The notes beneath the pieces were generated by a model, which was not told where the DNA came from, searched no databases, and worked only from the letters and a program-made list of their open reading frames with translations. The translations under genes and the position numbers were made by a program. A stretch of DNA of 64,000 nucleotides from Escherichia coli. GTDB lineage: Bacteria; Pseudomonadota; Gammaproteobacteria; Enterobacterales; Enterobacteriaceae. Shown here piece by piece: positions 49,862-49,884 of the stretch; within the stretch, counting starts at the first letter, position 1, and each line of letters opens with the position of its first letter. Where the stretch lies: assembly GCF_003334305.1 (NCBI RefSeq), contig NZ_QOWS01000013.1; one strand, 5' to 3'.

Positions 49862-49884
49862 GGTATAACAGGTATAAAGGTATA
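49862..49884 (+). promoter_or_regulatory. NanR operator: three tandem GGTATA repeats in the nanA promoter
   Basis: GGTATAACAGGTATAAAGGTATA located ~40 bp upstream of the nanA start; GGTATA hexamer repeats are the NanR operator as I recall it. Confidence 0.85.

Follow-up and report, generated by a model that had tools for sequence, protein, structure and literature searches.

The NanR operator of the nanATEK-yhcH promoter of Escherichia coli K-12 (Kalivoda et al. 2003, 2013; Horne et al. 2021) is defined as three GGTATA direct repeats with spacers of 2–3 nt (PMC3658417), and binding of NanR to the three repeats has been shown in K-12 (PMC8012715; PMC3658417). A single repeat binds NanR poorly, spacers widened by 6 nt attenuate binding, and Neu5Ac weakens the binding of NanR to DNA 28-fold (Horne et al. 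2021, PMC8012715). For the K-12 sequence, which is identical to the one described here, the literature has shown NanR binding, its stoichiometry, the effect of Neu5Ac and strong induction. A review that cites Kalivoda 2003 and 2013 names CRP as the activator of the nan pathway and NanR as its repressor (PMC12562284). A genomic SELEX study found that NanR remains on the nanC/fimB site despite Neu5Ac (PMC5934670), and release may therefore not be all-or-none at every operator.

NanR resembles regulators of the FadR type (GntR/FCD) in that its winged-helix N-terminal domain superimposes on the FadR-DNA structure and in that its hold on DNA is loosened once an effector is bound by the C-terminal domain (PMC8012715). 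The two differ in how DNA is occupied. A single FadR dimer sits on one palindromic site, whereas NanR occupies three direct repeats as three dimers that cooperate via an N-terminal extension (PMC8012715).

The locus described here carries the same 121-bp spacer, flanking genes, repeat number and repeat spacers as the K-12 nanATEK-yhcH operator, and no difference was found at the operator itself. The operator upstream of nanX (yjhB) in K-12 nanXY (yjhBC) is the same 23-mer. The nanC operator of nanCMS, GGTATAACAGGTATAAAGGTGCA, is identical to it at 21 of 23 positions and has a degenerate third repeat. In K-12 both of these operators lie roughly 410–420 bp upstream of the start codon, compared to 35 bp at nanA here.

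The nan locus and its three-repeat array

The window, by which the whole 64-kb stretch of analysed DNA is meant, is an E. coli chromosome segment that holds nanR, nanA, nanT, nanE, nanK and nanQ (yhcH), all on the + strand. According to the RefSeq annotation of an identical strain the gene order is dcuC, nanR, nanA, nanT, nanE, nanK and nanQ/yhcH; the gene annotated as dcuC is dcuD at the same position in K-12. The features of the locus are the following.

49007–49798, + strand: nanR, GntR/FCD-family repressor of 263 aa, full-length ORF (NCBIfam NanR, NF003011)
49862–49884, + strand: NanR operator, the 23-mer GGTATAACAGGTATAAAGGTATA with three GGTATA direct repeats
49911–49914, + strand: Shine-Dalgarno GAGG, read from the sequence, 5 nt before the nanA ATG
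49920–50813, + strand: nanA, N-acetylneuraminate lyase of 297 aa (TIGR00683, 571.6 bits, cut-off 382; K73Q relative to K-12)
50922–52412, + strand: nanT, sialic acid:H+ symporter of 496 aa (NF003024, 947.9 bits, cut-off 604; one difference from K-12)
52460–53149, + strand: nanE, ManNAc-6-P 2-epimerase of 229 aa (NF002231, 340.5 bits; protein identical to K-12)
53146–54021, + strand: nanK, ManNAc kinase of 291 aa (NF047821, 509.4 bits, cut-off 450; six differences from K-12, no internal stop)
54018–54482, + strand: nanQ (yhcH), N-acetylneuraminate anomerase of 154 aa (NF040884, 237.2 bits, cut-off 160; three differences from K-12)

All six nan ORFs are full length without an internal stop, and all six proteins scored above the curated NCBIfam cut-offs. 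Compared to K-12 MG1655, 12–31 nucleotide differences were counted in each of the coding genes, corresponding to 0–6 amino acids per protein, as would be expected for another E. coli lineage. Beyond nanQ, the gap to gltD is only about 1 kb long and contains a transposase fragment of 306 nt together with what is left of a DUF1016 gene, a truncated yhcG pseudogene (window 54558–55359, - strand). Upstream of nanQ on the K-12 chromosome are yhcD, yhcE (split by IS5), yhcF and a full-length yhcG, in a comparison that ended short of the gltD-proximal stretch. Between nanQ and gltD the match of the window to K-12 is limited to part of yhcG, at 91%.

The exact 23-mer GGTATAACAGGTATAAAGGTATA was recovered with 0 mismatches at 49862–49884 (+), between nanR and nanA, which bears out the proposal of the first-pass annotation that a NanR operator of three GGTATA repeats lies upstream of nanA. 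The copies occupy 49862–49867, 49871–49876 and 49879–49884 and are separated by ACA and AA, so that repeat number and spacing are those of the defined NanR operator (PMC3658417). The array begins 63 bp after the nanR stop codon (49796–49798) and ends 35 bp before the nanA ATG (49920). Tandem Repeats Finder reported the same array over 49862–49884, as 2.7 copies with a period of 8 and with GGTATAACA, of 9 bases, as the consensus unit.

The 23-mer is unique in the 64-kb window on both strands when up to 3 mismatches are allowed, and at the same tolerance 0 matches were obtained in 100 dinucleotide-preserving shuffles. The single GGTATA hexamer in turn was not enriched in the window (21 observed against 14.6 ± 3.8 expected), meaning that what stands out is the packing of three copies into 23 bp of one strand. 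The spacer is also unlikely to hold a small ORF or a non-coding RNA, and this reading was rejected, as no ORF of at least 80 aa was found across the nanR–nanA spacer and no RNA family was matched in an Rfam scan of 49600–50100.

Conservation of the operator and its repressor

The nanR–nanA spacer (49799–49919, 121 bp) is 100% identical to that of K-12 MG1655 (NC_000913.3), the strain background from which the definition of the (GGTATA)3 operator comes. The operator was compared against the K-12 genome sequence rather than against a printed oligonucleotide. With this genome as the reference for the published nanA promoter, the alignment is free of mismatches over the whole spacer, and the earlier description of the operator as unaltered and of the nan promoter as intact holds base for base.

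Of 5426 complete E. coli genomes, 5101 have the 61 bp centred on the operator at 99% identity or better, and in 5406 the match extends over 80% or more of this stretch. An intact operator is hence the norm in E. coli. A 2.1-kb query that runs from nanR through the spacer and nanA into the first part of nanT matched 5411 of the 5426 genomes, and at least 15 sequenced isolates have this segment at 100% identity. The operator is already known and represents the default state in E. coli. Strain CB7286 (L125) is one of the genomes, roughly 6% in all, whose 61 bp depart from this sequence; it carries a one-base T insertion after the operator (TCGTTTT, not TCGTTT) at the place homologous to window 49885–49890. 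Another strain, PSJ-07 (L126, NZ_AP027619.1, ~1490–1545, homologous to window 49850–49890), has four GGTATA repeats at its nanA promoter. The fourth repeat arises via a 9-bp duplication of GGTATAACA, and the spacer of this strain also has a G-to-A change at a position further upstream. The four-repeat array is natural copy-number variation of the operator.

The genomes of 100,044 species were scanned with a pattern of (GGTATA)3 and spacers of 2–3 nt. The matches listed were mostly unrelated 8–9-bp tandem arrays; among them were two enterobacterial orthologous nanR–nanA loci, both from Enterobacter species (L015, L109), and none from Salmonella or Citrobacter. The Enterobacter proteins are 83% (NanR) and 89% (NanA) identical to those of the window. 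Alignment of the two spacers with that of the window gave one further feature.

49859–49889, + strand: 31-bp invariant block TCTGGTATAACAGGTATAAAGGTATATCGTT, which contains the operator and in which all columns are identical in the window and the two Enterobacter spacers

The spacer DNA that flanks TCTGGTATAACAGGTATAAAGGTATATCGTT diverges in the two Enterobacter loci. GAGGTAT, at the nanA Shine-Dalgarno sequence, is kept in both. An invariant block of 31 bp within a diverging spacer is the signature of a protein-binding site. The work of Kalivoda in 2003 is said to have given a NanR footprint of roughly 30 bp and an S1-mapped start site, and the size of the block agrees with a footprint of that length.

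The NanR protein of the window differs from that of K-12 by a single substitution, T207A. It matches the NanR structure PDB 6on4 over residues 1–263 (E 2e-171) and scored 408.9 bits against NF003011 (cut-off 260). All 23 of the published residues that contact DNA, Neu5Ac or zinc are present (list from PMC8012715). Nine of these are putative DNA contacts (S33, E58, R59, G68, R69, S71, R73, N89 and E91) and fourteen contact Neu5Ac or zinc. On the basis of sequence identity, binding of NanR to the operator of the window and its relief by Neu5Ac can be provisionally transferred from K-12.

Proposed promoter geometry and mode of control

Two features were read in addition from the spacer sequence.

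49808–49823, no strand assigned: CRP-like site AGTGA-AGCAGA-TCGCA (AGTGAAGCAGATCGCA), which agrees with TGTGA-N6-TCACA at 8 of 10 core positions
49861–49869, + strand: candidate extended -10 element TGGTATAAC (inferred), formed by the first repeat and the T that precedes it

The motif TGnTATAAC is common to all three K-12 promoters controlled by NanR. If TGGTATAAC acts as an extended -10, transcription is predicted to start near 49876–49877, which would place the operator at about -14 to +9 and give the CRP-like site a class I position, with its centre about 60.5 or 61.5 bp upstream of the start (-60.5 or -61.5). A scan of 49700–50000 for consensus -35/-10 promoters and terminators gave no matches. 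The lack of a -35/-10 pair is expected for a promoter without a good -35 and is no argument against a CRP-dependent extended -10.

The CRP-like site lies 38 bp upstream of the operator, where the first-pass annotation had pointed to an adjacent CRP site. On its own the match is at chance level, as 24 such sites were counted in the window against 25.5 expected (TGTGAN6TCACA, up to 2 mismatches). The AGTGA and TCGCA half-sites are invariant in the window and the two Enterobacter loci, with an N6 spacer that varies (AGCAGA or GATAGA), and in the K-12 nanX and nanC promoters TGTGA half-sites occupy the corresponding position, shifted outwards by 1 bp. The location in a short spacer, the conservation of the half-sites in Enterobacter and the paralogous half-sites at nanX and nanC raise the standing of the site as a candidate for CRP binding. 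A second CRP-like match, GATGATGTTAATCACA (48978–48993, 2 mismatches), is found 14 bp before the nanR ATG (49007) and is no better than chance.

The likeness between the three K-12 promoters extends beyond the operator. K-12 nanX, K-12 nanC and nanA of the window all have TTGATCT ahead of the operator and, upstream, a half-site of the TGTGA type. All three K-12 promoters have in common a module in which the operator is joined by TTGATCT, TGTATGG/TTGC and the TGTGA-type half-site; in the K-12 sequence (L004) it was observed at 5555–5697 (nanX) and at 41871–42013 on the - strand (nanC). From their sequences, the three NanR-controlled promoters of K-12 look like paralogous copies of one promoter.

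The array is almost certainly the operator through which NanR controls the nanATEK-nanQ (yhcH) promoter of E. coli, with occlusion by NanR, release by Neu5Ac and activation of the promoter by CRP. Under this model, three NanR dimers, the product of the adjacent nanR gene, would bind cooperatively in the absence of sialic acid, one to each GGTATA repeat. They would cover approximately 30 bp including the -10 region and the transcription start, and RNA polymerase could not start due to steric occlusion. Upon its entry into the cell, N-acetylneuraminate would bind the C-terminal domain of NanR together with zinc and weaken DNA binding, which would induce the operon. Full expression would also need cAMP-CRP at the upstream site (49808–49823), where CRP would recruit the polymerase while NanR blocks the -10 and start region. 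Such combined control by CRP and NanR would make the promoter require both the presence of sialic acid and the absence of a preferred carbon source. The arrangement is similar to that of lac-type promoters, which likewise combine a CRP site near -61 (a position inferred here for nan) with a repressor site over the start and respond when inducer is present and glucose absent. It differs in that the nan operator is made up of direct repeats, not a palindrome, and in that the window contains a single array, so that no looping to auxiliary operators is seen. We know of no DNA looping to auxiliary operators for the nan operator.

As a single GGTATA is common in the window (21 copies), the hexamer cluster could be taken for a chance occurrence without function. 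This can be dismissed, since none of the 100 shuffles gave the 23-mer even at 3 mismatches and since it is kept without change in thousands of genomes as well as between genera. The repeats might instead be mainly core promoter DNA, i.e. -10 elements of the TATAAC/TATAAA type that arose by chance or slippage, with repressor binding being incidental. Repeat plus spacer does resemble a -10 hexamer (TATAAC at 49864–49869, TATAAA at 49873–49878), TGGTATAAC fits an extended -10, and distant loci also set GGTATA repeats within TATAAT-like -10 regions. Invariance across genera of 23 bp plus 8 flanking bp is, however, far beyond the needs of a -10 hexamer. Furthermore, the 23-mer recurs at the two other known NanR targets (nanX identical, nanC 21/23), and direct measurements have shown that NanR binds the repeats, poorly when there is one alone and with attenuation when the spacers are widened (PMC8012715). 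Incidental repressor binding is therefore very improbable, and the core-promoter reading is better seen as complementary rather than rival, with operator and -10 sharing the same DNA. The weak points of the NanR operator assignment are those of promoter geometry, namely the lack of a -35/-10 pair and the chance-level CRP-like match; the assignment of the operator itself is uncontradicted.

An intact operator could also belong to a system that does not function in this strain due to a defect elsewhere. In favour of this are residue differences from K-12 (NanR T207A, NanA K73Q and six in NanK), the position of nanCMS and nanXY outside the window and the transposase fragment just downstream of nanQ. 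Against it, all six ORFs are full length, free of internal stops and above curated family cut-offs, and the NanR substitution spares every listed contact residue. The stretch from nanR to the nanT start is identical in at least 15 isolates, so that the alleles of those genes are common ones, and the transposase fragment falls after the last gene of the operon. A non-functional system is accordingly a most unlikely reading, and control by NanR of an intact operon is preferred. The earlier description of a functional sialic acid catabolic regulon can be retained for nanR and nanATEK-nanQ, which are full length and, as far as can be judged from their sequence, functional. The term regulon overreaches, as nanCMS and nanXY/yjhBC, the other operons controlled by NanR, lie outside the window.

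The strain carries the standard switch of sialic-acid catabolism in an apparently functional form, and the ability to catabolise sialic acid is linked to colonisation of the gut. Beyond annotation this is of little importance. For the annotation of the site, K-12 is a safe source. The site is also a positive control, in which an experimentally defined operator was recognised at its exact coordinates from sequence alone.

GGTATA arrays in distant phyla

Among the matches listed in the pattern scan, (GGTATA)3 was found beside NanR-like regulators in one Sphingomonadales MAG, one Synergistales genome and two Hungatella MAGs. In the Sphingomonadales MAG (L068, JAGWTB010000129.1), GGTATAGTGGTATAACAGGTATA is located at 1040–1062 (-) in a divergent spacer next to a regulator gene at 1291–2001 (+). 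The regulator scored 288.8 against NCBIfam NanR (cut-off 260) and is 53% identical to E. coli NanR. On the other side, the array precedes by approximately 60 bp a 293-aa gene without an NCBIfam match. This locus suggests that the pairing of NanR with (GGTATA)3 exists in Alphaproteobacteria.

In the remaining three genomes, (GGTATA)3 arrays with 2-nt spacers were observed at 8520–8541 (-) in Synergistales (L027) and at 6003–6024 (+) and 6788–6809 (-) in Hungatella (L052 and L060). All three arrays sit inside good sigma-70-like promoters (TTGACC ... TGGTATAAT). The Synergistales array immediately precedes a GntR/FCD gene that is NanR-like but, with 216 bits, does not reach the cut-off. The Hungatella arrays lie between a GntR/FCD gene and an operon that ends in a lyase of the NanA/DapA family, with a YhcH-like gene nearby; this locus differs from the RpiR-controlled nanAKE locus of PMC13228529.

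It is possible, if somewhat doubtful, that the GGTATA array, instead of being confined to enterobacteria, is an ancestral recognition element of the NanR subfamily (GntR/FCD) across phyla which regularly doubles as the -10 (TGGTATAAC/T), such that operator and core promoter would be the same DNA. Further tandem arrays were also encountered in the scan. Several Bacteroidota MAGs (L018–L023, L053–L058, L069–L079 and other loci) each contain many separate 8-bp tandem arrays of the GGTATA type on different contigs, which often adjoin CCCTTATTTCC-like repeats, and 11 tandem GGTATAACT units were observed in Pseudoalteromonas (L005).
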